Source of the DNA: Betaproteobacteria bacterium
Lineage (GTDB): Bacteria; Pseudomonadota; Gammaproteobacteria; Burkholderiales; Methylophilaceae
DNA length: 64,000 nucleotides
Reading direction: 5' to 3'
NCBI GenBank assembly: GCA_016867975.1
Contig: VGIC01000004.1
Span: forward strand, 11,252 to 75,251
Under the pieces are notes generated by a model. The model searched no databases. It was not told where the DNA came from and was given only the letters and a program-made list of their open reading frames with translations. Shown piece after piece: positions 33,982 to 56,757 of the stretch. The first letter of the stretch is position 1. The number at the start of each line of letters is the position of its first letter. The translations under genes were made by a program, and so were the position numbers.

Positions 33982-34323
33982 ATGCCACAAATCATCGTAC
34001 TGCCTCACATTGAACTCTGCCCGGAAGGCGCGGCAATTGAAGCCAACACAGGTGACTCCATTTGCGACACCTTACTCAACCACGATATTGATATTGACCA
34101 TGCCTGCGACAAAGTTTGCGCATGCACCACTTGCCACGTCATTGTGCGTGAAGGCTACAAAAGCCTGAACCCAGCTGAAGAGAGTGAAGAAGACCTGCTC
34201 GACAAGGCGTGGGGGCTGGAGCCCTTGTCACGCCTATCTTGCCAGGCCATTGTGGGTGATAGCGACCTTGTAGTGGAAATTCCCAAATACAGCATCAACA
34301 TGGCCAAAGAAGGCAAACGCTAG
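33982..34323 (+). CDS. fdx: ISC 2Fe-2S ferredoxin
   Basis: HACDKVCACTTCH and SRLSCQ motifs. Confidence 0.97.
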   Translation: MPQIIVLPHIELCPEGAAIEANTGDSICDTLLNHDIDIDHACDKVCACTTCHVIVREGYKSLNPAEESEEDLLDKAWGLEPLSRLSCQAIVGDSDLVVEIPKYSINMAKEGKR

Positions 34324-34343
34324 GGCCTATTCACAGGCCCTAG
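34320..34343. terminator. Hairpin between convergent fdx and SulP
   Basis: CTAGGGCCT-attcac-AGGCCCTAG; no clear U-tract. Confidence 0.45.
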
Positions 34344-34353
34344 TTAACAGACC

Positions 34354-35724
34354 CTAGTTCGCATCCACCTTCTCGATTTCCACCGTATCTTCTTTGCTGT
34401 GATGCAGCGGCACTTTTTTCAATAAAACAGCCATTGCAAAAATCACAATCGCGCTCAACACCGCTGGCAAGAAACCAGTGAGCGGCACCATGGCAGCGGT
34501 ATAAATCATCAGCCAAAAGTGAAACTTGCTTTTCATCTCCAGCACTTCCACAACTTCTTCCCATTTCACCATGCCAGAAGCCACATACAACAAAATGCCG
34601 CCGATACAAGCCATAGGTACTTGTTCCAAATGTGTTGCCAAATAGGCCGCCAGCAACAATTTGAACACGAATTTTGCAATACCAGCCAAAGGCGAAATCG
34701 CGCCCATGCGGATATTCACAGCGGTTCTGGCCAATGCACCAGTGTGCGGAAATCCGTTGAACAAGGGTGTGAAAATGTTCACCATACCCTGCCCCCATAG
34801 CTCTTTATTGGGGTTGTACGGTATGCCGGTGTTATTTGCCAACCTATCTGCCATGCGGCTACACAGCAGGCTTTCCACTGCGGCCACAAAGTAAATCGCC
34901 ACCGCAAAATACGCCAAATCCAGCCATACTGCGCCCGTCATTTCAGGTAATGCTGGCATGGTGAAGTTGAGAAAATCGGTTGGGATATTACCGTATTTAT
35001 CTTTGATTAAGACTAAGCCTTTGTCTTTCCAAAAAGTAGCGGCAGCCAACCAACCCAGCCCCAAACCAAATATCGGCGCGGGGATAAACACAGAGATTTT
35101 GATCAGGGTTTTGCAAATGGCAAATGTCGCCAGCGCCACAATCAGCGCGTAAACATTCATGTCCGGCAAAAATTCCAAGGTCTTTTGAATTTGGCTCATG
35201 AAGTTGTAGCCAATTTTCTCTTTAAAGCCAAACACCTCGCCCATTTGCGACATGGCAATCACAATCGCAATGCCGATGGTAAACCCCACCACAATGGAAT
35301 GCGGCACCAATGCCACGATACGGCCTTTTTTGGCAAGCCCTGTCATCATCAACATGGCACCTGCGATGATGGAACACAGCACCAAAAAGCTGTGATTATA
35401 AGTGGCCATTAAGCCCGCAATCACGGGGATATACGCCGCTGTGGGGCCATAGACTTGATATTTACTACCGCCAAACAGCGCGCCCAGCAAGCCCGCCACC
35501 GCCCCGCCCACAATGCCTTGCTCAGGGCGCAAGCCACTGGCCATGGCAAAGCCCATCGCCAGCGGAATGGCCACCATGGCGACCACCAAGCCGGCGGTTA
35601 AATCCTTAAATATATTTTTAGCAATATTGCCTTTTTTTAAGTCTTCATAACGCCCGTCATTGGGGTTCATGTAAAACTTGAGCGTACGTAGCAAATCGTG
35701 GCTATCTGTCTCGTGTTTAGTCAT
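34354..35724 (-). CDS. SulP/SLC26-family anion transporter lacking a STAS domain
   Basis: DLTAGLVVAMVAIPLAMGFAMASG, QVYGPT, NKELWGQG and ALARTAVN motifs; ends shortly after the last TM helix. Start placed at MTKHE; the ORF-track extension lies in a repeat element. Confidence 0.9.
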   Translation of the reverse strand: MTKHETDSHDLLRTLKFYMNPNDGRYEDLKKGNIAKNIFKDLTAGLVVAMVAIPLAMGFAMASGLRPEQGIVGGAVAGLLGALFGGSKYQVYGPTAAYIPVIAGLMATYNHSFLVLCSIIAGAMLMMTGLAKKGRIVALVPHSIVVGFTIGIAIVIAMSQMGEVFGFKEKIGYNFMSQIQKTLEFLPDMNVYALIVALATFAICKTLIKISVFIPAPIFGLGLGWLAAATFWKDKGLVLIKDKYGNIPTDFLNFTMPALPEMTGAVWLDLAYFAVAIYFVAAVESLLCSRMADRLANNTGIPYNPNKELWGQGMVNIFTPLFNGFPHTGALARTAVNIRMGAISPLAGIAKFVFKLLLAAYLATHLEQVPMACIGGILLYVASGMVKWEEVVEVLEMKSKFHFWLMIYTAAMVPLTGFLPAVLSAIVIFAMAVLLKKVPLHHSKEDTVEIEKVDAN

Positions 35725-35751
35725 TTTATAAGTGTCCTGTGTGTTGTTTAA

Positions 35752-35894
35752 GGAAAGGCTGATTAAATCGGCGAGCGAGATAAAGTGCAAGGCGCACGGA
35801 ACGCAGAAACCGAGATAGTATGCGGTATACAGCGAGGTTGCGAGTACCGCGTAACGAAGCAATTTGCTCGCGTAGACATTTAATCAGTGTTTCC
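35752..35894. mobile_element. MITE-like element: GGAAA..CTGATTAAAT shell with AAGGCG core
   Basis: 17-bp TIRs (15/17) flanked by TTAA and TTAG; the right flank is the carbonic anhydrase stop. Core is homologous to 31381-31504 and 56344-56757. Confidence 0.75.
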
Positions 35895-36539
35895 TTAGAT
35901 TTTAAGGGTGTCTTGCATGAAGTGAACCTTGCCTGTACTAATGTCATACACTGCACCGATGATTGCGATTTTTTTGTCTTGTATCATGTCGGTGACAATG
36001 TCGCTACTACGGATGATGGTGTCAATTTGATGTTGCACGCTCAGGCGGTTAATTTTTTCCACGAAATCAGGGTTTTTTGAGCACCGATCTTCTGGGTTTG
36101 TAATGGTTTTTTCATGTCTAATCGCCGGTTTAATCAAATTGATAATCTCACCAATGTGACCATCCATAAAGTTATCGCAGGCTGCTTTAACTGCACCGCA
36201 TGAGGTATGCCCCATCACCACAATCAGCTTGCTGCCTAAATATTTGCTGGCAAACTCTAGGCTGCCAATGGCTTTGTCTGAGGCGATATTGCCTGCCAAA
36301 CGCACACTAAATATATCCCCCAGCGCTTGATCAAATACCAACTCTACTGGAGCGCGAGAATCACTGCAGCTTAAAAAAGAAGCAAAAGGGTGTTGCTTGT
36401 CCTTGGTTTGGTGGATGAGCGTTTGAAAGTCTTTGTCTTCCTCGCAGTCAGACAAAAAACGCTGATTACCTTCAATCAAAATATCCAGCGCCTCTTGCGG
36501 CGTCATTTTGTCACGGTCTAATAACGGGTGTTTATACAT
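35895..36539 (-). CDS. Beta-class carbonic anhydrase
   Basis: EGNQRF, CSDSR and GHTSCGAV zinc-ligand motifs; GDIFSVRLAGN. Confidence 0.95.
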   Translation of the reverse strand: MYKHPLLDRDKMTPQEALDILIEGNQRFLSDCEEDKDFQTLIHQTKDKQHPFASFLSCSDSRAPVELVFDQALGDIFSVRLAGNIASDKAIGSLEFASKYLGSKLIVVMGHTSCGAVKAACDNFMDGHIGEIINLIKPAIRHEKTITNPEDRCSKNPDFVEKINRLSVQHQIDTIIRSSDIVTDMIQDKKIAIIGAVYDISTGKVHFMQDTLKI

Positions 36540-36555
36540 CAGGTTCTCCTTATTA

Positions 36556-38100
36556 TTAACTCTTAGGTTGTATAAATGCTACTTTTTCTACTGTAATGTT
36601 TTTGAGTTTTGCATGTAACTCGTAGTCACGTAAATACTCTGCCACATCATAAGAAATGGATTTGGACTTAGTGCAATCGAGAATCACCTTAGCGTTGGCA
36701 GGTATGGCCTCCAAAGCCTCAATGATGCGTGCCTTGTTAAAGAAAGAGACTTCTTCTGCCAACACAATATGGTGTACCTCGTGACCTTCTTCTGTGGTTT
36801 GAATGTCTTTCATATGGTAAGAATTACGGTAGCTGTGGTGCAAGGCAAAACCCAGCCCCACCAGCAAACCTAAACCAATACCAGTCAGCAAATCTGTGAA
36901 TACAATGGCGACAATCGTCACCATGAAGGGGGAAAACTGTTCCCAACCCAGCGCATACATTTGTTTAAACAAAGCGGGTTTTGCTAGTTTATAACCTACA
37001 ATAATCAAGATAGTCGCCAAGCTCGCCAACGGAATTAAGTTCAAATAACTGGCAATGGTAATGGCGCTGATTAACAACCAAAAGCCATGCAATATGGCTG
37101 ATAACTTGGTTCTCGCGCCAAAGGTAATGTTAGCAGAGCTACGCACAATCACTTGCGTGACGGGCAAGCCGCCGATTAAACCTGAAAGCATGTTGCCCAA
37201 GCCTTGCGCCTTAAGCTCTTGGTTGGTAGGCGTCACGCGTTTCAGGGGGTCTAATTTATCAGTCGCTTCGACGCACAATAAGGTTTCCAAGCTTGCCACG
37301 ATGGCTAATACAATCGCCGTTTTAATGACCGCCACATTATTCCACTGGCTAAAGTCCGGGTAAGTAAAGAAACTCACAAACTCACCTACACTATTGGCTA
37401 CCGGTAAACTGACAATCTGACTAGGTTCTAAACTGAATGGTAATAAGCCTTTTTGATACGTCACATTCATGGCAATACCGACCAATACCACCACAATTGG
37501 ACCTTGCAATACTTGAAAAAACTTATGCTTTTTAGTGAGAAACACATCCCACAAAATAAGGATTGCGAATGAAATCAAGGCAATCGTCACTGCCCCGGGC
37601 GTTAAATAGTCCCAAGCGTTGGAGAGCGTTGTAAAGGTATTTTCACCTGACGCCTGCTCAAACGACATACTTCCCTCAAAGTCTGCATCATAGCCAAAGG
37701 CATGCGGGATTTGTTTTAAGATGATCAATAAACCAATACCGGTGAGCATGCCCTTAATGACCGATGAGGGCACAAAATAGGCGACAAACCCCGCTTTAAA
37801 AAACCCCAAGGCATATTGAATCGCGCCCGCCAACACCACCGCGAGCAAAAAGGCCTCAAAGCTGCCAAGCGCACCAATTGCGGTGAGCACAATCACGGCC
37901 AAGCCGGCGGCCGGGCCACTGACACCTAACTGAGAACCACTAAAAATACCAACGACGATACCGCCCACAATGCCCGCAATAATGCCGGAAAATAATGGCG
38001 CGCCTGAAGCCAAAGCGATGCCCAAACACAAAGGCAGAGCGACGAAAAATACCACGATACTTGCCGGCAAGTCACTTTTAAATTCTTTAAATAATTGCAT
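36556..38100 (-). CDS. SulP-family anion permease with STAS-like tail (probably bicarbonate)
   Basis: SDLPASIVVFFVALPLCLGIALASG, VSGPAAGL, NQELKAQG, VIVRSSAN and a short STAS-like C-domain; AGGGAG RBS before the ATG at 38100. Confidence 0.92.
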   Translation of the reverse strand: MQLFKEFKSDLPASIVVFFVALPLCLGIALASGAPLFSGIIAGIVGGIVVGIFSGSQLGVSGPAAGLAVIVLTAIGALGSFEAFLLAVVLAGAIQYALGFFKAGFVAYFVPSSVIKGMLTGIGLLIILKQIPHAFGYDADFEGSMSFEQASGENTFTTLSNAWDYLTPGAVTIALISFAILILWDVFLTKKHKFFQVLQGPIVVVLVGIAMNVTYQKGLLPFSLEPSQIVSLPVANSVGEFVSFFTYPDFSQWNNVAVIKTAIVLAIVASLETLLCVEATDKLDPLKRVTPTNQELKAQGLGNMLSGLIGGLPVTQVIVRSSANITFGARTKLSAILHGFWLLISAITIASYLNLIPLASLATILIIVGYKLAKPALFKQMYALGWEQFSPFMVTIVAIVFTDLLTGIGLGLLVGLGFALHHSYRNSYHMKDIQTTEEGHEVHHIVLAEEVSFFNKARIIEALEAIPANAKVILDCTKSKSISYDVAEYLRDYELHAKLKNITVEKVAFIQPKS

Positions 38101-38116
38101 GTTAGTGAAACTCCCT

Positions 38117-38401
38117 GAGACCTTTGCACAAAGCATTTTTAACCTAAAAATCTATCAAGTTTGTCATTCCGGCGGAGGCCGGAATCCAGACAGGCTCCAT
38201 AGCCAACTAAAATAACTTTAGCAAGGGCGATTGTTAACTAAACTATAAAAACAATAGGTTATATTGATTTTTCCGACATTATTTTCACTAAAGTTACTAC
38301 TCTAAATGTCACCTTGCCTAGATTCCGGCCTCCGCCGGAATGACGGGTTTTTGATATTTTAGTTAAAAATTGAACCATTTTTTGTTTTGTGCAAAGGTCT
38401 C
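38117..38401. mobile_element. 285-bp nested-palindrome MITE with GAGACCTTTGCA ends and an inverted REP-like doublet
   Basis: Perfect 16-bp TIR GAGACCTTTGCACAAA; subterminal AT-rich IR; inner 27-bp IR GTCATTCCGGCGGAGGCCGGAATCCAG (38163-38189 vs 38318-38344, 26/27). Confidence 0.8.
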
Positions 38402-38523
38402 TCTCTGTTATTAAATAGTGGCTTAAGCTAATACAGATGACGACTGCGCATATGCCTTAAACCACAAAAACCCTGCTTGTGAATATTCACAGGCAGGGCA
38501 GCTTACCAGCCGATATATTACAG

Positions 38524-38802
38524 TCAGTCTTTACTGCCTTCCAAATAAGGTTGTTTACCCAACATATTGATTCGCAATTTTTGATATTCAGTCGGGCCGT
38601 CTTTGGCCTTATCTTCTCCAGTCACCTTCGTCGCACCTTCCCAACCTTCTTCTTTGTTGTTTGCAGACTCATCCGGCAATTGCTGATATGGGCGCTTGGA
38701 CAGGTTCTGGTTGTTTACATTATCCTTGTCAGTTGCATATGCCAAACCACTCGCCAACAAAATCGCGGTAGATACAATCACTGCCAAATTAAAGCTTTTC
38801 AT
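38524..38802 (-). CDS. Small secreted protein B (two KRPY-like motifs flanking GWEGAT)
   Basis: AGGAG RBS, signal peptide (LAYA-T); paralogous to 38838-39110 with a 20-bp identical stretch. Confidence 0.85.
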   Translation of the reverse strand: MKSFNLAVIVSTAILLASGLAYATDKDNVNNQNLSKRPYQQLPDESANNKEEGWEGATKVTGEDKAKDGPTEYQKLRINMLGKQPYLEGSKD

Positions 38803-38837
38803 GTCCATCTCCTAATCCCTTATTCGCACACTCACTA

Positions 38838-39110
38838 TTAATATGGACGCTTAGACAAATTATTGAGACGTTGTACGTGCTGTTTCTGATCTACAGCATT
38901 GCCATCTTCACTTACTTCGCCACGCACCAATGTCGCACCTTCGAAGCCATCAGCTTTTTGATAAGCACTCTCAGGCAGAGGTTGTGCATAGGCACGTTTT
39001 GCGAAGTTTTGATTGTGTACATTTTTCTTGTACGCATCTTCCGCATTGGCCAAACCAGAAGCCATTAAAGCTACTGCTGATACAATCACTGCCAAATTCA
39101 TCGTTTTCAT
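38838..39110 (-). CDS. Small secreted protein A (two KRPY-like motifs flanking GFEGAT)
   Basis: AAGGAG RBS, signal peptide (LANA-E), paralogy with the downstream gene. Confidence 0.85.
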   Translation of the reverse strand: MKTMNLAVIVSAVALMASGLANAEDAYKKNVHNQNFAKRAYAQPLPESAYQKADGFEGATLVRGEVSEDGNAVDQKQHVQRLNNLSKRPY

Positions 39111-39203
39111 GTTCATCTCCTTCATCAATTACTGCTTCGTTAATTTAAGTTTCAATCGCTTTGTTGATGGAACGCATTATGCAGGGGCTTAGTCAATGAA
39201 AAA

Positions 39204-39221
39204 TCTACCAAAATAGGTAGA
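39204..39221. promoter_or_regulatory. Palindrome in the divergent peptide/luxR promoter (candidate LuxR/NarL-type operator)
   Basis: TCTACC-aaaata-GGTAGA. Confidence 0.5.
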
Positions 39222-39242
39222 ACGGTATATACTATATGGCAT

Positions 39243-40004
39243 ATGCCAAATGACATATCACACACGATTGAGCAGCCCGCCAGCGCACGAGCGTTGCGGC
39301 AAAGCCTGAAACAGACACAGGCCAATGATACGCATCTGCGCCTTTACCAGAATCTGGGTCAGCAATTATTTGAACATGGCTGGAGTGCAGCCACTGCATC
39401 CAATCTGCTACATTCCCTTTGCACCTTACTCTCGGCACAGCACGCCATATTGGCGATAGAGGACTCCGGCAAGTTGATTGTATCCAGCCAAGTCGGTCAG
39501 GCCCTGCCAGTAGGCGCCAGGATTCCCATGATGGGCATACTGGCAATGATGTTGAAAAACCCAGTCAATTTTACGCTGTATGAGAACAAGAATACGCAAT
39601 TATGGACACATGGTGAGGCTGCCCACCATGAATGCTTGATCCCCATCGCGCTGAACCGCCATGGCGTGGGCATCATTGCGCTTTCCGGCAAAAAGCTCAC
39701 GCTGAACCCGGCAGAAATCGAGTCTTTACAAGCGTTTGCAGGCCTGTTGGCGCTCGCCATCTCCCAGCACCAAAACCCGACACGTAGCGAGGCGGATCAA
39801 ACCATCCTGGAAGCGTTAACCCCAAGGGAACGCGAGATTCTGGCCTTGCTGCCTTCCGGCCTAAGCAACAACGAGCTGGGTGCAAAGCTCGGCATTGCGC
39901 CTGGCACAGCCAAAATCCACGTCGAGCGCGTGCTGAGTAAGCTGGGCGTCAAGGACAGGACACAAGCGGCTGTGAAAGCGGTTGAACTGGGGTACAAAGC
40001 ATGA
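39243..40004 (+). CDS. GAF-like domain plus LuxR-type HTH regulator (no receiver domain)
   Basis: C-terminal LTPREREILALL..GLSNNELG..LGIAPGTAKIHVERVLSKLG; N-terminal IPIAL..GVGIIAL..LQAFAGLLALAI, GAF-like. Confidence 0.88.
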   Translation: MPNDISHTIEQPASARALRQSLKQTQANDTHLRLYQNLGQQLFEHGWSAATASNLLHSLCTLLSAQHAILAIEDSGKLIVSSQVGQALPVGARIPMMGILAMMLKNPVNFTLYENKNTQLWTHGEAAHHECLIPIALNRHGVGIIALSGKKLTLNPAEIESLQAFAGLLALAISQHQNPTRSEADQTILEALTPREREILALLPSGLSNNELGAKLGIAPGTAKIHVERVLSKLGVKDRTQAAVKAVELGYKA

Positions 40005-41941
40005 ACCCGCTTGGCCGCATTGCACAGGCTTGGCAGAACCTTCCCCTCGGGCTCAAGGGTGTTTTCGTCATTGCCCTTCCCTTGCTGGTCTTGCTGGCTT
40101 CTTTGGGCTCTCTGTATTTAAGGGAACAAGAATCCACACAGCTTGAAAACAAGCTCCGGCTGGCGCTGCAAAACCAGCGCGACATCCAGACCGTGCATAG
40201 CCAACTGCTGGAAGCTTCCACCGGTGTCAGGGATTACTTGCTGACTGGTGACAAACATTTTCTGAATATTTTTTTTCGCGTCGAGCAAGCTTTGCCAACG
40301 ACTCTTGTACAACTTCAAACCCAGCTGGAAAACGAAACGCAGAAGCAGCGCCTCGCCAGAATTACGCCTTTGGTTGAACAAAACCTGCATGATTTGCGCA
40401 TCATGTCTGAATACGAATCTGAGGTCGCCTCGGAAAACCTGATTGCCAAATTCAAATCGCAAGTGAACACACTGGATAAACTTCGCTACGAGATTGAACT
40501 GCTCAATGCGGAAGAAGCGATTTTGGTAGCCAAAGACCAGCAGGATGTCTTTGAGCAGCGACAGCGCAATATCACCATCACCTTACTGGCCGCCATTACC
40601 GGCATCATCGGCTCTTTGGTAGCCGTTTGGATATTCTCACGCACCATCGTCAAACGTGTACGATTGCTGAGAGACAGTGCAGCTCACCTGGCCAAGGCAG
40701 AAGCCTTGGACCTGCCCTCCAGCAGCCGTGACGAATTAGGACAACTCTCCGACGAGCTGGAACACGCTTCGCAATTACTGGCACAAAATATCAATGCCGC
40801 CAATCAGTCGCGGCATGAAGCCGAAGAGGCCAGCGCTGCAAAAAGCATGTTTTTATCTCGCACCAGCCATGAGCTGCGAACCCCGCTTAACGCGATTTTA
40901 GGGTTCGCCCAACTTTTGGAGCTGGATTTAGCACCAGGCAAGCAGTTGAATAGCGTTCAGCTGATTAAAGGCGCTGGCCAGCATTTGCTTAAGCTCATCA
41001 ACGAAGTGCTTGAAATCGCAAGAATCGAATCTGGTGAAACAACCCTAGAGCTTACGCCAGTTTCAATCAACAGCCTGCTGGAAGAGGCCGCGCATTATAT
41101 TGCCCCGATTGGTAAAGTGAGAGACATTGAGATTCGCTCTAACATCTCGCCTGATTTATGGGCAATGGCTAACCGGCAGAAGCTATTGCAGGTGACATTA
41201 AACCTGCTCTCCAACGCATTGAAATACGGCCCTGTCAGCTCTACTGTGCAGTTAAACGCCTATCGCCGCAGTGATGTGATTGTGATTGAAGTGCAGGACA
41301 CTGGTCCAGGCATCCCTGCCGACCTGAGAGAACGGGTGTTTACCCCATTTGACAGACTGGGCGCTGAGAATACCAAAGTGGAAGGCACAGGTTTGGGGCT
41401 GGCGCTATCCAAGCAGATTATGCTGGCGATGCATGGCAACATCCAGCTTGCAACAGACAAGAGCTTATTCTGGATAGAGATCACAGCCTGCGCTCCGGAT
41501 ATGTCTGTACCAGAGCAGGCTCAACAGACCAACATTAGCAAACCGGTGAGCCTGTCTGACAAACACTCTATTCTTTATGTGGAAGACAATATCAGTAACC
41601 GCGCTTTGGTCGAGGCGATTATCATGCGCCAGCGCGACTTACGCATCCATTGCGTATCCACCATCAAGGATGCCAAACGATACTTGGCAGAAGTACACCC
41701 TTCGGCATTGCTGATTGATTTAAACCTGCCAGATGGCTCAGGTGAGGAGTTGGTATATCACGTACTGAATGCGCCTGAGCTCAAAAATATTCCAATGATG
41801 ATTTTAAGTGCAGATGCGCTGCCAGATACTATCAGCCGTTTACAAGCCGCCGGCGTGGCAAGCTATATGACAAAGCCATTGGATGTTGCATTGTTCAATA
41901 AGCAAATCAGAGAACTTCTTCAAAATCAGGATCAATCATGA
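40001..41941 (+). CDS. Hybrid sensor histidine kinase (CHASE3, HAMP-like, HisKA, HATPase, REC)
   Basis: Two TM helices; STGVRDYLLTGD (CHASE3), SHELRTPLNAILGF, NALKY, DTGPG, GTGLGL; C-terminal receiver YVEDN..IDL..TKP. Confidence 0.92.
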   Translation: MNPLGRIAQAWQNLPLGLKGVFVIALPLLVLLASLGSLYLREQESTQLENKLRLALQNQRDIQTVHSQLLEASTGVRDYLLTGDKHFLNIFFRVEQALPTTLVQLQTQLENETQKQRLARITPLVEQNLHDLRIMSEYESEVASENLIAKFKSQVNTLDKLRYEIELLNAEEAILVAKDQQDVFEQRQRNITITLLAAITGIIGSLVAVWIFSRTIVKRVRLLRDSAAHLAKAEALDLPSSSRDELGQLSDELEHASQLLAQNINAANQSRHEAEEASAAKSMFLSRTSHELRTPLNAILGFAQLLELDLAPGKQLNSVQLIKGAGQHLLKLINEVLEIARIESGETTLELTPVSINSLLEEAAHYIAPIGKVRDIEIRSNISPDLWAMANRQKLLQVTLNLLSNALKYGPVSSTVQLNAYRRSDVIVIEVQDTGPGIPADLRERVFTPFDRLGAENTKVEGTGLGLALSKQIMLAMHGNIQLATDKSLFWIEITACAPDMSVPEQAQQTNISKPVSLSDKHSILYVEDNISNRALVEAIIMRQRDLRIHCVSTIKDAKRYLAEVHPSALLIDLNLPDGSGEELVYHVLNAPELKNIPMMILSADALPDTISRLQAAGVASYMTKPLDVALFNKQIRELLQNQDQS

Positions 41942-42405
41942 CCGAAGCAGACATTCTAAACGCTAAGATTCTCATCGTAGACGATGCAGAGGCCAATTTA
42001 AAGCTACTGGAAGATTTACTGGCAAGAGAGGGATTTCATCAAATCATCAGCACCGCAGACTCCACACGTGCATTGGATTTATTCAAAGCGTTTGAGCCGG
42101 ACTTAATCCTGCTGGACTTAATGATGCCCGAGTTAGATGGCTACGCGGTATTAGAAATACTCTCGCGCCATATCGCAAAAGATGAGTATCTACCGGTACT
42201 GGTACTGACGGCAGATGCCACCATTGGCGCAAAAAGAAAAGCCTTGGCTTTAGGGGCCAAGGACTTTTTAACTAAACCTTTTGATACCATTGAGGCGATG
42301 CTTCGCGTTTGGAACCTGCTTGAAACGCGCCTGTTGTATCGCCATTTGAAATCACTCAATGCCGACATTAAACCTGCGGTGCATTCACATCAATCTACTG
42401 AATAA
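41938..42405 (+). CDS. Single-domain response regulator (REC only)
   Basis: ILIVDD, LLDLMMP, LTA and FLTKPF motifs with only a short tail. Confidence 0.92.
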   Translation: MTEADILNAKILIVDDAEANLKLLEDLLAREGFHQIISTADSTRALDLFKAFEPDLILLDLMMPELDGYAVLEILSRHIAKDEYLPVLVLTADATIGAKRKALALGAKDFLTKPFDTIEAMLRVWNLLETRLLYRHLKSLNADIKPAVHSHQSTE

Positions 42406-42432
42406 CTAAGCTGCTGAATAAAAGCCCTGTAG

Positions 42433-43416
42433 TTATTGAGTAAGCATCGCCACTTGATTCAAAGCCACATCAGCACGTGCAGTTCTTTCAGTGATCTTAT
42501 TCAAATAAGCGATCGCTTGTGGATGCTCAGCATTTAATGACAGCACTTTTTTGAAGTGATCTTTAGCTTGTTCATAAGCTTGTGTTTCATACTCAGCTGC
42601 AGCCAAGTGAAACCAAGACTCAGCTACTTCAGGCTCGCTTTTTACCCAAGCTTGAGAAACCGCCAACAAAGATTTCCAATTTTTGGAAACATAAGGTTGC
42701 ACCACTTGCATAAAGTAAGGACGTTCCTTTTCACTTGCAGCCCAGAAAGGTTTTTTACTTTCAACCCCCAAAGCCTGAGCAGGCTTATCCATCAGTGACT
42801 GCACCCACTCTACCGGCATATAGAAATACTGTGCTTCGCTACCACGGCTTTTTAAGGTGATGATTCCCACCAGAGACCCAGTTTCATCAAACACGCCACC
42901 GCCACTAGCCCCTAATTTGAAAGGACTGCTTGCGCGTATTACCATACTGCCATCCATGGGAAACATTGCCTTAACGACACCATAAGTATTCACTGGCACA
43001 GTAGTCTCACCAGGATAGCCCACAGTAAAGACTGCGGTTTCATATTTCAAACTCTTAGTAGCATGCATCTTTGCTACAGGAGCTTCTAAATCAGCAACCG
43101 TAAGAATACATAAGTCATGGTGCCAATCCGGCTTGACTGACGTTGCTTCATGAGCGACACCATTCGCCACCACTTTTACATCACGTGCATCGGTCACCAC
43201 ATGGCAATTGGTCACCACTTGGTCTTTAGCAATGACCACTGCTGATCCAAGACCATCAGACCCATTATTGTGCTTTACTTGCACTCGCAACACTTGTGCA
43301 TTCAACTCGCGCACCATTTCATCGGTAGGCGTAGCCCAAGCATGATGAGTCAAACACCCCATGAAAACTGTCGAACCTAATATGGCTAGATTTAATACTC
43401 TAAGATAATGTTTCAT
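42433..43416 (-). CDS. Secreted trypsin-like (S1C) serine protease with C-terminal TPR
   Basis: Signal peptide; triad motifs TNCHV, HDLC and GASGGG; TPR-like AESWFHLAAAEY. Confidence 0.88.
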   Translation of the reverse strand: MKHYLRVLNLAILGSTVFMGCLTHHAWATPTDEMVRELNAQVLRVQVKHNNGSDGLGSAVVIAKDQVVTNCHVVTDARDVKVVANGVAHEATSVKPDWHHDLCILTVADLEAPVAKMHATKSLKYETAVFTVGYPGETTVPVNTYGVVKAMFPMDGSMVIRASSPFKLGASGGGVFDETGSLVGIITLKSRGSEAQYFYMPVEWVQSLMDKPAQALGVESKKPFWAASEKERPYFMQVVQPYVSKNWKSLLAVSQAWVKSEPEVAESWFHLAAAEYETQAYEQAKDHFKKVLSLNAEHPQAIAYLNKITERTARADVALNQVAMLTQ

Positions 43417-43550
43417 GATTGCTTGCCTCGCTTCACTAACTTAAACGTTGCTGACAATCACTACACTGCAATTACCGTTCCAACTAGAAAATATTTGGCG
43501 CAACCTACCATTAAACCTTTCATAAACAAATAGTTATAGAATTTTAAGAA

Positions 43551-43580
43551 AAGAAAAAGGCCTCTAGAATTTAGAGGCCT
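43551..43580 (-). terminator. Intrinsic terminator after the beta-barrel operon
   Basis: AGGCCTCTA/TAGAGGCCT stem with a U-tract on the minus strand. Confidence 0.7.
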
Positions 43581-43658
43581 CAAAAGACAATTACGCACAT
43601 TATCAGTGCGCTTGGTATTTAATGGTGCATGTTGCACCTGTAAGGAAAACACATTGAA

Positions 43659-44747
43659 CTAGTAAGCAAAAATAATGGCTGTTGTGGCAATCAAGTTATT
43701 TTGACTTGGCTCACCATGATTCAAATAGATTTTATCTTTACTGTGAAATTTTCTTAATTCCGCGCGTAAAGTAACATGACTTAACACTTTGAAATCAGCA
43801 TTTACTGAATAGCTCGTTGTTCTAAAACCAGATGGCGTGCCGGTATCAACAATCACCCCATCTTTATCCTGATAATATTCTGCCCTTGCCGTAAAGCCCA
43901 ACCTTTCAGAATAGGCGTATCTAGCAATCACAATCGGTGTAAACCATATATTATAGCGATTGCTGTTTTTCTCTTTTTGCTCTGCGCCAATGTCGAATCC
44001 GGTCAGCAGACTCCATTGATCACCCAACTGGTATTGCCCATAGAAATTATGAAAATAACGCATTTTGTGGGTTCTGTCTGACTTATCGTTACCAATAAAC
44101 GAGCTGCTATTGAGTGTAATCTTAGCGTTCGGTTTATAAGTGAGTTGATGCCCGAATGATGGCATCGTGTTCCCATCTGGTCGCTGGATGCGCTGCCAGC
44201 CGTTTAACAGCAACCCACTGGCATACCATCGGCCATCTTCTGAGGTATATGAAACTCTTACACCCGTCTCAAAATAAGGCGAATTGTCGGCAAGGATGCT
44301 CCTTGTCAATGTCCAGTTTTCTGCGCCTATGGCACTCTCAAAGCCAATATGCGAAGGCAAAACGCCAGCATCCAGCCACAAATCATGTGTATCGGACAAC
44401 TTCATCCCGACATTGACTTCAAAAATCTTTTGTAAATCATCAGGTTCGGCCGCGTAATTTGCCCGCATATAAGTCCCGGAGCCCAGTGAAAGATTCGCCC
44501 GAACACGGTCGGACTCCAGCTTGGCTTTGACTATGGCCAGATTGAGACTGGGCTTACCTGTTTTGTTGTGGCTATAAGCAAAACTTGGGCGCGTATCATC
44601 TGAGGCATGATCAAAGTCATGTATATGGTAAGTTTCCAGATACCCGCCAAAACTTAACTTAGCGCGCTCATCATCTACTGTCTCGTCGGCCAACAAAACT
44701 TTGGGCAAAGACAAGACAGCAATGAGTAGGATTTGCTTACTTTTCAC
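43659..44747 (-). CDS. Outer membrane porin, BBP2/OmpL-like family
   Basis: Signal peptide, LWLDAGVLPSHIGFE, NWTLTRSILADNSPYFETG, alternating beta-strands and C-terminal aromatic residue. Confidence 0.8.
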   Translation of the reverse strand: MKSKQILLIAVLSLPKVLLADETVDDERAKLSFGGYLETYHIHDFDHASDDTRPSFAYSHNKTGKPSLNLAIVKAKLESDRVRANLSLGSGTYMRANYAAEPDDLQKIFEVNVGMKLSDTHDLWLDAGVLPSHIGFESAIGAENWTLTRSILADNSPYFETGVRVSYTSEDGRWYASGLLLNGWQRIQRPDGNTMPSFGHQLTYKPNAKITLNSSSFIGNDKSDRTHKMRYFHNFYGQYQLGDQWSLLTGFDIGAEQKEKNSNRYNIWFTPIVIARYAYSERLGFTARAEYYQDKDGVIVDTGTPSGFRTTSYSVNADFKVLSHVTLRAELRKFHSKDKIYLNHGEPSQNNLIATTAIIFAY

Positions 44748-44773
44748 AATTAGCCATGCATTAAAAGCAATGA

Positions 44774-45472
44774 TTAAAAACTCAGCACCAAAGTTGAAGA
44801 GGCCACATGATTTTCCGAGTCAGGCTTACCGTGTTGATTCACATACTGATTTAAATAACCGACCTCAAATTTAACATCAGGCTGAAACGCCCAGTTGACG
44901 CCCAGAAAGGCACGATTCTGATCAAAACCACGACGCGCGCCGTAATCGGTATCGTTTAAATTGATGAAATACTCATCATACGCAACCCAGTGCAACTTGG
45001 GGCTTATGGCAGAAGGCATGGTCAGGCGGATCATCTGCCGAATTTTATGTCCGGTTTCATGGGAGTTCTCGATAAAGCGCTGCTCCAGACGGGTGCGGCT
45101 CTGAATCGACAGCGAACCTACTGGCTCAAAATTATGCAGCAGTTGCTGCCACACACGATTTTCCTCAAAGGATGGCTTACTATTCGGATGTGTCGTCACA
45201 TGCGCATAACCCAGCCACAAGCTGGTTTGTTTGTTCAAAGCATAAAAAACCGCCGGGCGAATAAGCAGTTGATCAAAATGGCTACCTTCTTCACGCCAGC
45301 GCGGCTGCAGTTCGGCATACCAGCGCCAGTTTTCCAGCGGCAACGCACCGGTTGCATTCACATTCAGCCAAAAACGACCATCTTCTTCAGTATCGGCATT
45401 AGCCTGCGTACTGAGTAATAACAAAAAAAATAACATTCGCGCACTAAACATAAAGCGCATAAGTAACTCCAA
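44774..45472 (-). CDS. DUF2490-family outer membrane beta-barrel
   Basis: ENRVWQQ, RTRLEQRF, YDEYFINL..GFDQNRAFLG and EVGYLNQ motifs; terminal Phe. Confidence 0.85.
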   Translation of the reverse strand: MELLMRFMFSARMLFFLLLLSTQANADTEEDGRFWLNVNATGALPLENWRWYAELQPRWREEGSHFDQLLIRPAVFYALNKQTSLWLGYAHVTTHPNSKPSFEENRVWQQLLHNFEPVGSLSIQSRTRLEQRFIENSHETGHKIRQMIRLTMPSAISPKLHWVAYDEYFINLNDTDYGARRGFDQNRAFLGVNWAFQPDVKFEVGYLNQYVNQHGKPDSENHVASSTLVLSF

Positions 45473-45502
45473 AACAAAGCCGATTATTGTTCCTTAAGGA
45501 TA

Positions 45503-47041
45503 TTAAAACCCTAATAAGGTCAATTCCGTATAGAAGAAATCAGAATCCATATCGCGGTCTGCCTGACCAGCAACCTTTCTTGAAATGGTTTTAACAAAAT
45601 CTTCCGCCCAGAAGTGGGCGTAGCCCAAGTTAAGCGATGCGTATTGGTTGATTGGGAAGCGCACGCGCAAGTCGAACTCTTTACCTAGATCCTTGCCACT
45701 CTTGCCTGTCTGGTCGCGCAGGTTGGCACCAGCATTCCAGCGATCAGTCGCGCTATCCAGTTGAAACCAGCTAAAACCGGTATCTACTTTCACGTTATCC
45801 AGAAAGGCTATTTTAGGGTCAAACTCCAACCGTAATTTGGGCGTACGGATATTTTCCATCTGGATGTAATCATCGTTTGACCAAGGGCGGGCAAAACCGA
45901 ATAACCGTTCAAAGCGTTGGTGCTTGCCATCATTCGGGTGCTTGTCACCGTTGACCACGCCATAGAAGGCACTCAAGCGCGGTTTCCATGGGTACTTGAA
46001 GCTGTAGCCAATCTCGGCGTTGTAGGCATAGGCGTCGTGATCCAGTTCAGCAATGAATGCGCCAGCATTGCTCAATTCGTCCTGATGCCCCCATTGTTTA
46101 ATATAGCTAACGTCATAATCAAATCCGCTTTTACCAACCATGCCGTAGGCACGCAAACCGGCAGTATGAATCTCACGGTCAATTTTAGTGTTAGCCGCAG
46201 CAGCTTTGCCGTTGCTGTCGTATTTCACCTCGTCGCCATCCTGCTTCAGCAACAGATAATAAGGTTCTAGTGTGACCGTTTCCGACCAGCCGCGCCAATT
46301 ACCAATCACACCGTAAAAGTCCTGCGCATGGTCTACTTCATCCAGCCGCGTGGTAAAGCGTTGCACCGGTTTCACCGCGAGCAGTTCCAATTGCCAGTCA
46401 TTCTTCTTGTCTCCTATCTGCGCCCTTAGCCCTTGAAAGGTGTTGGTGGTGTTACGCCACTCATTGCGCGCAATCAGGCGGCGGTCTATGGCTTCCCAGG
46501 CGTGGCGCCCGGCACGTACCCAAACAGGGCGTGCGTTACCAAGATCATCTTTCCCTAGAAAACTCTCTTTAAAGTTAAGCTCCAGATAGCCTTGCAGAAT
46601 ATCGGCTTGGTCGATATCGCGTGTGTCGTATTCACGGGTATAGTCGCCATGGTTGCGGCGAGAGTCTTGCACTTCGATAGCAAATCGCAATGGATCGAGA
46701 GTATTCTTCACCCCCAGATAAGCGCGGGTGCGTTGCAACAATAGCTCGTCGATGTTTTGATCTGCACGGCGAAAATCATTATCGCGGCGCTCAAAACGCG
46801 CACGGTATTCCAGCCCCACATCCAGCCAATCCACATCGGCAAAAGTGTCGTAATCTTTCAGCCAGGTCTTGTTCGCCTGCTTTACATAGCGTGGCGGCTC
46901 AGTCTCTTTCTGTGTGCCATAACTTTTACGTTCGACGTAATAATCCTGACGCTCCAACTGCCCAGCAGCATCCTCTGCGGCAATAACGCCTCCGCAGACC
47001 AATAACCCTATCAGTGCAAACCAATTACGATACATAAGCAT
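45503..47041 (-). CDS. Alginate-export (AlgE-like) family outer membrane beta-barrel
   Basis: Signal peptide, LEYRARFE, RAGRH..DRRLIARNEWRNTTNTFQG, FGFARPWS, GKEFDL and terminal Phe. Confidence 0.8.
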   Translation of the reverse strand: MLMYRNWFALIGLLVCGGVIAAEDAAGQLERQDYYVERKSYGTQKETEPPRYVKQANKTWLKDYDTFADVDWLDVGLEYRARFERRDNDFRRADQNIDELLLQRTRAYLGVKNTLDPLRFAIEVQDSRRNHGDYTREYDTRDIDQADILQGYLELNFKESFLGKDDLGNARPVWVRAGRHAWEAIDRRLIARNEWRNTTNTFQGLRAQIGDKKNDWQLELLAVKPVQRFTTRLDEVDHAQDFYGVIGNWRGWSETVTLEPYYLLLKQDGDEVKYDSNGKAAAANTKIDREIHTAGLRAYGMVGKSGFDYDVSYIKQWGHQDELSNAGAFIAELDHDAYAYNAEIGYSFKYPWKPRLSAFYGVVNGDKHPNDGKHQRFERLFGFARPWSNDDYIQMENIRTPKLRLEFDPKIAFLDNVKVDTGFSWFQLDSATDRWNAGANLRDQTGKSGKDLGKEFDLRVRFPINQYASLNLGYAHFWAEDFVKTISRKVAGQADRDMDSDFFYTELTLLGF

Positions 47042-47148: not shown

Positions 47149-47169
47149 AAAAAACCCCGCAATTGCGGG
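47149..47169 (-). terminator. Intrinsic terminator after the OprO/P porin
   Basis: CCCGC-aatt-GCGGG followed by GTTTTTT on the minus strand. Confidence 0.65.
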
Positions 47170-47247
47170 ATAAAGAGGGAGTTTGTAAACCTTTTATTGG
47201 AATGAATTTGTCGTTCTAAATGTGCAATTCACATGCCTTTTACACGC

Positions 47248-48627
47248 CTAGAAAGACAAATCCCACTGCGCCCATAGGCGTGTTTCATCATCTCTCTTTT
47301 TAGAGGTCGTAGTTGTTGCAGGGTCTTCCACCGTCAATCGACTGGCTTGCAGACTAATCTTATTGTTATGCCCATCGAAGAAGTAATTGACCACAGCACT
47401 CAATTCTTTTTGCTTGTCATTATCTCGGTCGGTATCCATATCCACAACGGCATAACGCGCTGCGATTTCTAGCTCTTTTGGAATGCCTGAAATGATGCCG
47501 TGAGGAAAATAACCTGCCTGCACAAAACCACCCAATAATTTGACCTCTTCATCAAAGTTCAAAGTATCTTTGATTTTCTTGGAGTGCAATTCATGCAAGA
47601 ATGAAAAGCCTTTATATTTAAAACTAACTTCTCCCAGCATTTGGTCGATCTTATATTGTCCAGGTGCAGGTCTCTTTGCAGAATCTTTATCATTTGGATC
47701 TTTATATCTGCTATCTTTTAATACCCTGCAACCGTCATTTGCTGTCTCAAATGCCGTACATTTGCTTTGGTTAGTATTGGCAGCAATCGAGATATTTAAA
47801 TGCGGCTCTTCGCTGAAGTCGGTATCCGATTGGTCCCATTTCATTTCTCCGCCCATGGCATTCCATTGCAGGCGACCGGAATACATCATATTGTCATCGT
47901 CATTATCACGCTCACCCACGCCCACGCCAGTGAAAGCACCCACGTAGTAGGTCATATCTACAGGCGTACCAGCAAACAAATTACCTTTAAGCTCAACACC
48001 TTGTTGACGATCGACCGTGAAAATATCGTTGACGATAGAACGATTGACAAACTGTTGTGCACCGGATGAAGCCACACGCTCGTTGTTGTACGAGACTTTG
48101 CCACGCCCAACACGCAACTGCGCCCATTTATATTTGTCCACCGTCAGTGATAAATCACGCAGAACCGGTTGTGACCAATCATACTGCATGTAGTATTTAA
48201 TCCAGGGTACAAACGCGTGGCCCTTCAATTTGGTACGCGCACGGCGAATCATAAAGGAATTGGTGTCTGCATCAAGATCTTTCGTTGTGCGTGGGTCTTT
48301 ATCAAACGGTTCTGCATACCTAAATTGTATTCTATTCTGGATAGCCAGTGAAAACTTGTCATCTTCGGTCCCAAATTCGAAACCACTCTTACCATAACTG
48401 ACACTCGCCGGCGCATACCCTTTCTTAGGCTCCTTTTTCTTGTTGCTAGCAACTTCGCCCCCATGCCCCTTCATCAACAACGCACCTTCCTCTTCAGTCA
48501 ACACCCCTTTAGCCACCAGCGCCTGAACCAAATCGCTCGTAGTGTCAGCAGATGACTGCGTACCAAACCCCATCATCACTGAACCTGCAAGCGCTGCTGC
48601 CAACATGCCATGTAGTTTGTAGCTCAT
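47248..48627 (-). CDS. Phosphate-selective porin, OprO/OprP family
   Basis: LVQALVAKGVLTEEE N-terminus, RIQFRY, IRRARTKLKG, FVNRS and RQQGV motifs; upstream Pho box. Confidence 0.85.
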   Translation of the reverse strand: MSYKLHGMLAAALAGSVMMGFGTQSSADTTSDLVQALVAKGVLTEEEGALLMKGHGGEVASNKKKEPKKGYAPASVSYGKSGFEFGTEDDKFSLAIQNRIQFRYAEPFDKDPRTTKDLDADTNSFMIRRARTKLKGHAFVPWIKYYMQYDWSQPVLRDLSLTVDKYKWAQLRVGRGKVSYNNERVASSGAQQFVNRSIVNDIFTVDRQQGVELKGNLFAGTPVDMTYYVGAFTGVGVGERDNDDDNMMYSGRLQWNAMGGEMKWDQSDTDFSEEPHLNISIAANTNQSKCTAFETANDGCRVLKDSRYKDPNDKDSAKRPAPGQYKIDQMLGEVSFKYKGFSFLHELHSKKIKDTLNFDEEVKLLGGFVQAGYFPHGIISGIPKELEIAARYAVVDMDTDRDNDKQKELSAVVNYFFDGHNNKISLQASRLTVEDPATTTTSKKRDDETRLWAQWDLSF

Positions 48628-56343: not shown

Positions 56344-56757
56344 GAGACCTTTGCAAAAGTGCTTCTTGTGGATGAAGCGTACCAGTGATTGGCATATCCG
56401 TGGAATATATGCGCTGAAGCGCATTATTCACACGCCAAAGGCGCACACCCGCACGGGGCATCACCAACCTCGCTAGATGCTGAAGCATTAAGTCGGTTGT
56501 GACGGAACGCATAAACCGAGAAAACCAACGCAGTGTTTCGGCGTAGGCTAACTCACGAAGCGATGTTAAGCGTAGCGGCCGAAGCCATAGTATGCGGTAT
56601 ACAGCGAGGTTGCGAATTTGTTTTTGGCAGGCATTTGAGCGTAGCTCAAAGCTCGCACAACGTAGTTGCGGTGTAGGCATAACCTTAAGGTTATGCCGTA
56701 ACCAAAAAACCGCGTAACGCAGTGATTCGCCATAGGAAGTAGTTTTGCAAAGGTCTC
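56344..56757. mobile_element. 414-bp composite MITE with GAGACCTTTGCAAAA ends between ftsH and folP
   Basis: Perfect 15-bp TIRs; four collinear blocks match the 35752-35894 core, separated by hairpin-rich inserts including GTAG-GCATAACC-TTAA-GGTTATGC. Confidence 0.8.

Follow-up and report, generated by a model that had tools for sequence, protein, structure and literature searches.

Do genes that stand side by side, and whose products nearly all belong to the cell envelope, make up one machine? The question is raised by a block of genes in a 64-kb stretch of DNA from a member of the Methylophilaceae (contig C4:11252-75251; "the window" below means this whole stretch). Between isc-fdx and an OprO/OprP-type porin gene, the block encodes two SulP-type anion carriers and a beta-carbonic anhydrase, two small secreted proteins, a LuxR-type regulator with a hybrid histidine kinase and a receiver protein, a secreted protease with tetratricopeptide repeats (TPR), and three outer-membrane barrels. 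The initial annotation had read these genes as one envelope-spanning unit for inorganic carbon and pH. Our analysis indicates that the block is probably a mosaic of at least five independently transcribed nutrient-uptake and signalling modules, gathered in a variable slot between isc-fdx and lysS.

The source assembly comprises 1.56 Mb in 44 contigs and is 92.7% complete. Its nearest named relatives are Methylotenera, and in an hscA tree the window clustered with Methylotenera mobilis 13 and one same-genus genome. M. mobilis 13 has most of the block's layout (locus L006). Gene types were checked with Pfam, and the SulP proteins were also scored against NCBIfam cut-offs. We surveyed distribution in 101 species-level Methylophilaceae genomes, including the source genome, and mapped all block proteins on 51 fetched loci; the LuxR-type regulator was also searched for in 400 class-level genomes. 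Pfam confirmed every gene type that the initial annotation had listed for the block (Table 1). Its statement that no iscX follows fdx was also correct: fdx ends at 34323, and there are zero open reading frames (ORFs) between it and sulP1.

We distinguished at least five transcription units in the block: sulP2-bCA-sulP1, pepB-pepA, luxR-kinase-receiver, the protease gene, and AlgE-like-DUF2490-BBP2. The porin gene forms a further unit. Three of these units carry distinct control signals, namely a LuxR-type palindrome (pep/luxR), a sigma-54 promoter with an NtrC-like upstream site (protease) and a Pho box (porin). Terminators separate several of them (Table 1), and in most relatives a hairpin with a T-run could be seen 3' of the peptide genes. 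Judged by these signals, the modules look independently regulated. A 63-amino-acid ORF at 43461-43652, which overlaps a terminator as well as promoter signals, is probably spurious.

We observed that the fdx-lysS interval is a variable slot in the Methylophilaceae (51 mapped loci). Its simplest layout, and a frequent one, is bCA alone (fdx, bCA, lysS), and two same-genus genomes have sulP1-bCA. Other loci hold bCA-sulP2 followed by the peptide genes and the sensor operon, with or without the protease gene. Still others have the peptide genes, the sensor operon and the protease gene without bCA-sulP2, or the peptide genes, luxR, the receiver gene and the protease gene without the kinase gene. 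In genome G021, bCA-sulP2 lies on another contig, beside a tRNA gene. The closed 1.28-Mb genome G022 has the peptide, LuxR, kinase, receiver and protease set and lacks bCA and sulP2. The initial annotation had proposed synteny across the Methylophilaceae as a check, and the synteny was not conserved: the full set occurs in no other sampled genome, and the barrel genes are in most cases hundreds of kb away from the slot and from one another. The four sampled same-genus genomes lack the sensor, the peptide genes, sulP2, DUF2490 and BBP2. The protease family is present in these genomes only as distant paralogs (37-47% identity), and the AlgE-like gene of one such genome (G039) lies ~1 Mb from the slot.

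Sequence identities varied along the block. Compared with the close relative L087, identity was 92% for sulP2, 94% for luxR, 77% for bCA and 63% for the protease gene. Compared with G019, it was 89% for bCA, 91% for sulP2, 75% for luxR and 68% for the kinase gene. L087 shares a single tract at ~92-94% identity that runs across sulP2, the peptide genes and luxR. Inheritance of the block is, by these identities, apparently mosaic, with predicted recombination breakpoints that ignore module borders. We had considered incongruent sulP2 and kinase trees as proof that the modules are exchanged separately, and we dropped this argument; because the L087 tract crosses module borders, only mosaic inheritance is claimed. 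A published account of flexible genomic islands in the Methylophilaceae mentions no SulP, lysS, porin or two-component genes, and carbonic anhydrase appears there only as strain-specific island cargo (PMC10872708). Our literature search found no link between that paper and the fdx-lysS slot. One locus (L025, G078:C1:29066-32238) has a sulP2 with an in-frame TAA, a luxR split in two frames and one truncated peptide gene, perhaps through joint decay of the two modules or through assembly error.

Table 1. Features of the block and its borders, in window coordinates (strand "." marks features without a strand; E, E-value).
Feature	Position	Strand	Evidence or remark
Bidirectional terminator hairpin, convergent fdx/sulP1	34320..34343	.	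10-bp stem, then T-rich tail
sulP1, SulP anion carrier, last gene of operon	34354..35727 (ORF 34354-35862, likely start ATG 35727)	-	Sulfate_transp E 7.5e-62
MITE-like inverted-repeat insert between bCA and sulP1	35749..35897	.	20-nt arms, 90% complementary
bCA, cytoplasmic beta-carbonic anhydrase	35895..36539	-	Pro_CA E 8.6e-40
sulP2, SulP anion carrier, first gene of operon	36556..38136	-	Sulfate_transp E 9e-57
MITE-family copy between pepA terminator and sulP2	38117..38401	.	285-bp palindromic element ending just before sulP2
Intrinsic terminator 3' of pepA	38471..38498	-	Palindrome CCCTGCCTGTGAATATTCACAAGCAGGG, then TTTTTG on minus strand
pepA, small secreted protein	38524..38802	-	Signal peptide with AxA cleavage site; two KRPY-type motifs around WEGAT core
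pepB, paralog of pepA, ends in SKRPY	38838..39110	-	Signal peptide
Palindrome TCTACC-N6-GGTAGA between divergent pep and luxR promoters	39204..39221	.	Probable LuxR-GAF operator
luxR, LuxR-type regulator	39243..40004	+	GerE E 1.5e-16 and GAF-like N-terminal domain; no receiver domain
Hybrid histidine kinase	40001..41941	+	CHASE3-HAMP-HisKA-HATPase_c-Response_reg; hydrophobic segments flank the periplasmic CHASE3 sensor
Receiver-only response regulator	41938..42405	+	Response_reg E 8.7e-26
HtrA/DegS-like serine protease	42433..43416	-	Trypsin_2 E 2.8e-26 and TPR; signal peptide; intact His/Asp/Ser triad
Sigma-54 promoter TGGAAC-N5-TTGCA before protease gene	43467..43482	-	Sole such site in 64-kb window
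Intrinsic terminator 3' of BBP2, between barrel operon and protease gene	43557..43581	-	10-bp stem, then TTTCTTTTCT
Dyad GCGCAC-N7-GTGCGT, NtrC-type-looking site	43593..43611	-	~120 nt upstream of sigma-54 promoter
BBP2 (OmpL-like) barrel	43659..44747	-	BBP2 E 2.3e-98
DUF2490 barrel	44774..45472	-	DUF2490 E 1.1e-56
AlgE-like barrel	45503..47041	-	Alginate_exp E 5e-109, full-length
Terminator 3' of porin gene, upstream of AlgE-like gene	47154..47171	-	
OprO/OprP-type porin	47248..48627	-	Porin_O_P E 1.9e-11
Pho-box-like repeat TTGTCAT-CAAA-TTGTCAC	48704-48687	-	Overlaps -35 element of porin promoter

The part of the proposed unit that stood is inorganic-carbon uptake and hydration. The carbonic anhydrase has the zinc motifs CxDxR and HxxC (SCSDSR and GHTSCG in the sequence) and no signal peptide, and its gene follows sulP2 in the same orientation after a gap of 16 nt. 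Pfam found no STAS domain in either SulP protein, nor in the C-terminal 94 amino acids of sulP2 at E up to 1. The two carriers are ~29% identical to each other, and neither reaches the NCBIfam cut-off for BicA (134 and 125 bits; cut-off 880), for DauA (224 and 162 bits; cut-off 614) or for sulP. A SulP clade without STAS always adjoins a carbonic anhydrase gene, and can2-sulP of Acidithiobacillus ferrooxidans is one such pairing (PMC6458275). Methylococcus capsulatus has a beta-CA3-SulP operon (PMC11423575), and that paper cites Felce & Saier 2004 for gene pairs and fusions of SulP with beta-carbonic anhydrase. The locus resembles these pairs in grouping a STAS-less SulP with a cytoplasmic beta-carbonic anhydrase, and the 16-nt gap fits the clade. 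It differs from them in that two divergent SulP paralogs, neither reaching the family cut-offs, flank one carbonic anhydrase, a layout that in our sample occurs only in this genome. We conclude that SulP and carbonic anhydrase form a real unit, of a kind already in the literature. Most likely, as in the known pairs, sulP2-bCA-sulP1 would move bicarbonate over the inner membrane and interconvert it with CO2.

Orthologs of bCA occur in 52 of the 101 family genomes and adjoin fdx and/or lysS in most fetched loci. A sulP2 ortholog is present in 21 (20 of the 100 others), and sulP1 orthologs (84% identity) were found only in the two same-genus genomes with the order fdx, sulP1-bCA. By lysS identity (92-94%), the closest relatives in our sample are two Methylotenera, and both have sulP2-bCA-dabA-dabB (DabA E 2.8e-212), with dabA-dabB directly after bCA at L004:17752-20979 and L005:17390-20613. 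Because dabA-dabB directly follows bCA in these relatives, the carbonic anhydrase side of the slot is read as a carbon locus. DabA is absent from the source genome assembly, and sulP1 occupies the dabA-dabB position.

A mobile element and a MITE-like insert were observed on the two sides of bCA-sulP2. The copy next to sulP2 belongs to a family of miniature inverted-repeat transposable elements (MITEs) whose terminal repeat, GAGACCTTTGCACAAA, has 28 matches across the 1.56 Mb of the genome, frequently in inverted pairs with 130-410 bp between them; window positions 56344-56757 are another site with this repeat. The insert at 35749-35897 marks the junction between sulP1, with sampled orthologs only in the same genus, and the bCA-sulP2 segment, with its closest sampled relatives in other genera.

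The peptide, LuxR-GAF, kinase and receiver module is restricted to the Methylophilaceae. LuxR-GAF occurs in 21 of the 101 family genomes and in none of the four same-genus genomes. The synteny comparison with Nitrosomonadales and Methylococcales proposed in the initial annotation was inapplicable to this module; the 400 class-level genomes yielded no full-length LuxR-GAF ortholog, only matches to the helix-turn-helix domain. Named LuxR-GAF homologs all came from Methylophilaceae or unclassified Pseudomonadota metagenome-assembled genomes. Just 131 members of the peptide family turned up in 5.8 billion proteins; each is annotated as hypothetical and lacks a Pfam domain; pepA and pepB likewise have no Pfam family. 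Named peptide homologs are nearly all from Methylophilaceae, the exception being one Cellvibrio metagenome-assembled genome. We found no paper linking Methylophilaceae with CHASE3.

Within the sensor operon, the kinase start overlaps the luxR stop by 4 nt, and the receiver gene stays beside luxR in loci without the kinase gene (L012/L022, L023). By Pfam the phosphorelay is incomplete: Hpt is absent, the response regulator consists of a receiver alone, and LuxR-GAF lacks a receiver domain. Three GAF models match residues 51-173 of the luxR product, all below threshold. The protein does not have the makeup of a quorum-sensing receptor, given this sub-threshold GAF instead of PF03472 and no LuxI synthase gene in the block. 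An AlphaFold2 model built on an 11-sequence alignment was poor (mean predicted local distance difference test score, pLDDT, 51; N-terminal domain <50), and no conclusion was drawn from it.

As expected of a LuxR-type regulator, the protein pairs a GerE helix-turn-helix with a palindromic operator candidate that is conserved at what would be its target promoter. The core CTACC-N6-GGTAG has a single perfect copy in the 1.56-Mb genome, between the pep and luxR genes. About 30 orthologous loci, including some whose LuxR is only ~45% identical, share AAAAATCTACC-N6-GGTAGAACGGTATATACT upstream of luxR, and in about 25 the palindrome is conserved at this position. In ~1.1 Mb of related loci the dyad TCTACC-N6-GGTAGA was found only at the pep/luxR position. 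Neither this genome nor those loci showed a perfect or near-perfect palindrome in front of sulP2, of the protease and AlgE-like genes or of additional peptide paralogs. From a putative pep -10 element (TGCATAAT), transcription would be expected to start ~43 nt downstream of the dyad, a lux-box-like layout. Most likely the LuxR-type protein would bind this dyad and control both secreted KRPY proteins and its own operon. In two loci (L032 and L034, of G091 and G061), extra KRPY-family peptide paralogs lie several kb from the luxR operon, and these loci have no other palindrome.

This arrangement resembles LuxR activators with an operator near -42.5 (the lux box, LuxR "solos") in its length of ~250 amino acids, its C-terminal GerE, its N-terminal domain of ligand-binding type and its 18-bp dyad ~43 nt upstream of the predicted target promoter. 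It departs from them in a GAF-like N-terminal domain in place of the Pfam autoinducer-binding domain, in having no LuxI synthase, in an operon that also encodes a CHASE3 hybrid kinase and a receiver-only protein, in having small secreted proteins as its likely targets, and in being confined to the Methylophilaceae.

The protease gene carries signals of another kind. Its product has the motifs TNCH, HHDL and GASGG and matched solved structures of the catalytic domains of DegP, DegS and MarP. Like HtrA, DegS and DegP (S1C), it combines a trypsin-fold domain and a His/Asp/Ser triad with a signal peptide. It differs from them in that TPR takes the place of PDZ (Pfam found no PDZ domain), in its sigma-54 promoter and in a family expanded to up to 6 paralogs per genome in the Methylophilaceae. 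The family occurs in 91 of the 101 genomes; paralogs sometimes form tandem arrays of three (e.g. G019:C56:459-3994), and the source genome has a single copy.

The sigma-54 promoter, set 13-85 nt ahead of the start codon, was present in 16 of the 17 orthologous loci. Twelve of these loci have a GCAC-N7-GTGC dyad 96-120 nt upstream of the -24 element. Judged by the NtrC consensus, this dyad is a putative NtrC site. Two sigma-54 activators are encoded in the genome, neither of them in the block; one is a true NtrC (TIGR01818, 702 bits; cut-off 559). The gene therefore has the parts of a sigma-54-dependent gene, namely a -24 GG/-12 GC promoter, an upstream site and sigma-54 activators in the genome. 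Because the sigma-54 promoter and the NtrC-like dyad are conserved, a secreted protease induced by nitrogen limitation is suggested; through these two sites, it would most likely belong to a nitrogen-limitation regulon.

We next consider the three barrels. BBP2 was found in 13 of the 101 genomes, almost always far from the slot, DUF2490 in 29 at scattered positions, and the AlgE-like gene in 22. In 11 of 14 fetched family loci, the gene directly after the AlgE-like gene is sbp, often followed by cysTWA. The AlgE-like-sbp adjacency was also seen in L087 and in a different family (G440), and the arrangement with or without cysTWA was seen among loci L061-L071, L020, L009, L077 and L087. In L087, whose LuxR is 94% identical, fdx is followed by bCA-sulP2, two peptide genes, luxR-kinase-receiver, the protease gene and DUF2490-cysA-cysW-cysT-TOBE-sbp-AlgE-like. 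Where L087 thus has AlgE-like-sbp-TOBE-cysT-cysW-cysA-DUF2490, the window has AlgE-like-DUF2490: compared with L087, a 4.2-kb ATP-binding cassette (ABC) transporter part is missing from the source genome and BBP2 has been added. Because this part is missing here and present in L087, the three-barrel operon is apparently a lineage-specific deletion remnant of an AlgE-like-sbp-cysTWA sulfate-uptake operon. Genes sbp, cysT and cysW are absent from the source assembly, which is 92.7% complete.

The gene context suggests that the AlgE-like barrel is a candidate dedicated outer-membrane channel for sulfate or oxyanions. With AlgE of alginate export it shares a full-length Alginate_exp barrel, and in relatives its gene is co-oriented with and directly before that of the Sbp-CysTWA importer. 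Unlike in alginate export, no alginate biosynthesis genes lie near it; its neighbours are DUF2490 and BBP2 here, with the ABC-transporter partner deleted in the source genome, and sbp-cysTWA in relatives. We found no paper linking Alginate_exp barrels to sulfate uptake, and nothing on the function of DUF2490. One locus (L030, G083:C1:1689476-1690932) has an AlgE-like pseudogene inside the slot, with one TGA and two TAA stop codons. On contig C3 of the source genome (G000, C3:79013-86426), a LysR-type regulator gene is divergent from a permease candidate, which is followed by cysI, a 205-amino-acid ORF, cysH, cysD and cysN. Pfam supports only cysH and cysD (PAPS_reduct); the other genes, among them the TSUP/DUF81-like permease candidate, were called by eye from translations.

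At the far border, the description of the porin as Pho-regulated held at the sequence level, as the gene has both a Porin_O_P domain and a Pho-box-type repeat. It resembles the phosphate-selective porins OprP and OprO in this domain and in the direct repeat over its -35 element. It differs in sequence from the porins that relatives have at this position, with which it shares only 29-41% identity.

From gene context and promoter signals, we infer that the theme shared by the modules is acquisition of carbon, nitrogen, sulfur and phosphorus at the envelope, and not one machine. Several points weigh against a mosaic of independent modules. Of the 100 other species, 18 have both sulP2 and the LuxR module, 2 have only sulP2, 2 have only the LuxR module and 78 have neither. 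G021 and G004 keep both in unlinked positions (in G021 on separate large contigs), and elsewhere the two stay adjacent even at ~45% LuxR identity. Genera with LuxR and genera with the AlgE-like gene overlap in 10 of 11, which may be plain shared descent. It is also possible that a regulator acts through a site that we did not recognise. The same co-occurrence, retention and adjacency would suit a smaller unit of two modules, in which the sensor module reads a periplasmic cue, possibly inorganic carbon or pH, and is tied to sulP2-bCA, with the protease, barrels and porin as bystanders. So would the directly divergent sulP2 and luxR of G050, with a common 326-bp intergenic region, the shared tract with L087, which looks like one recombination tract, and the joint damage to sulP2, luxR and a peptide gene in G078. 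We nevertheless regard this two-module unit as unlikely. Neighbours can be gained or lost together in single events, so that co-occurrence is no proof of a functional link. The peptide genes are separated from sulP2 by a terminator and, in the source genome, also by a mobile element. The sulP2 upstream region is not conserved and has no LuxR-type palindrome, even in the unlinked G021 copy. G022 and G064 have the sensor without sulP2, G044 and G089 have sulP2 without the sensor, and a DNA-binding LuxR-GAF without a receiver domain leaves the kinase no evident output route. A bolder form, in which a new periplasmic signalling circuit travels with and tunes the sulP2-carbonic anhydrase operon, with secreted proteins that the regulator controls and that in turn act as cues for the kinase, perhaps once the TPR protease has cut them, seems to us improbable.

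The sulfur genes allow another envelope-spanning path, in which the AlgE-like channel, after loss of Sbp-CysTWA, feeds sulfate to a SulP carrier. In its favour, relatives have the AlgE-like gene at the head of sulfate ABC-transporter operons, and the source genome, without sbp, cysT and cysW, still has cysI-cysH-cysD-cysN; sulP1 and sulP2 are the sole SulP genes in the genome, and both score below the BicA and DauA cut-offs. However, both lie in an operon with carbonic anhydrase, the signature of the bicarbonate-type SulP clade (PMC6458275), relatives have DabAB at the sulP1 position, and G039 has sulP1-bCA together with a full AlgE-like-sbp-cysTWA operon. The cys operon has its own permease candidate, called by eye, which weakens the case for SulP as the only possible sulfate importer, and sbp-cysTWA could sit in the missing part of the assembly. 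We consider this route very doubtful. The single inorganic-carbon/pH system of the initial annotation, with barrels, secreted peptides, protease, SulP, carbonic anhydrase and kinase as its parts, appears extremely improbable, although the parts are contiguous in this genome, all products except carbonic anhydrase and the regulators are envelope-related, and LuxR, AlgE-like and BBP2 tend towards the same genera. No other sampled genome has the full set, and outside this genome the barrel genes are not linked. Sulfate uptake is the context of the AlgE-like barrel, the protease gene has sigma-54/NtrC-type signals and the porin gene a Pho box, the LuxR palindrome occurs only at pep/luxR, and terminators lie between the units. 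In addition, CO2 passes membranes freely, and we found no carbon-related partner for the barrels. The sub-blocks are largely scattered independently across genomes, and their control signals differ in sequence, which is largely the outcome that the initial annotation had itself named as speaking against one unit.

Had the block been a single unit, methylotrophs would have had in it a new kind of carbon-acquisition system that spans the envelope; the mosaic result removes a tempting over-interpretation of gene adjacency. What the mosaic reading offers in its place is a slot beside isc-fdx in which the Methylophilaceae swap carbon-uptake options, with carbonic anhydrase alone or with sulP1, sulP2 or DabAB. 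It also yields three leads: a signalling module specific to the family, whose putative operator is sharply conserved and which nearly always occurs together with sulP2, a protease family with sigma-54/NtrC-type promoters, and AlgE-like barrels heading sulfate operons.

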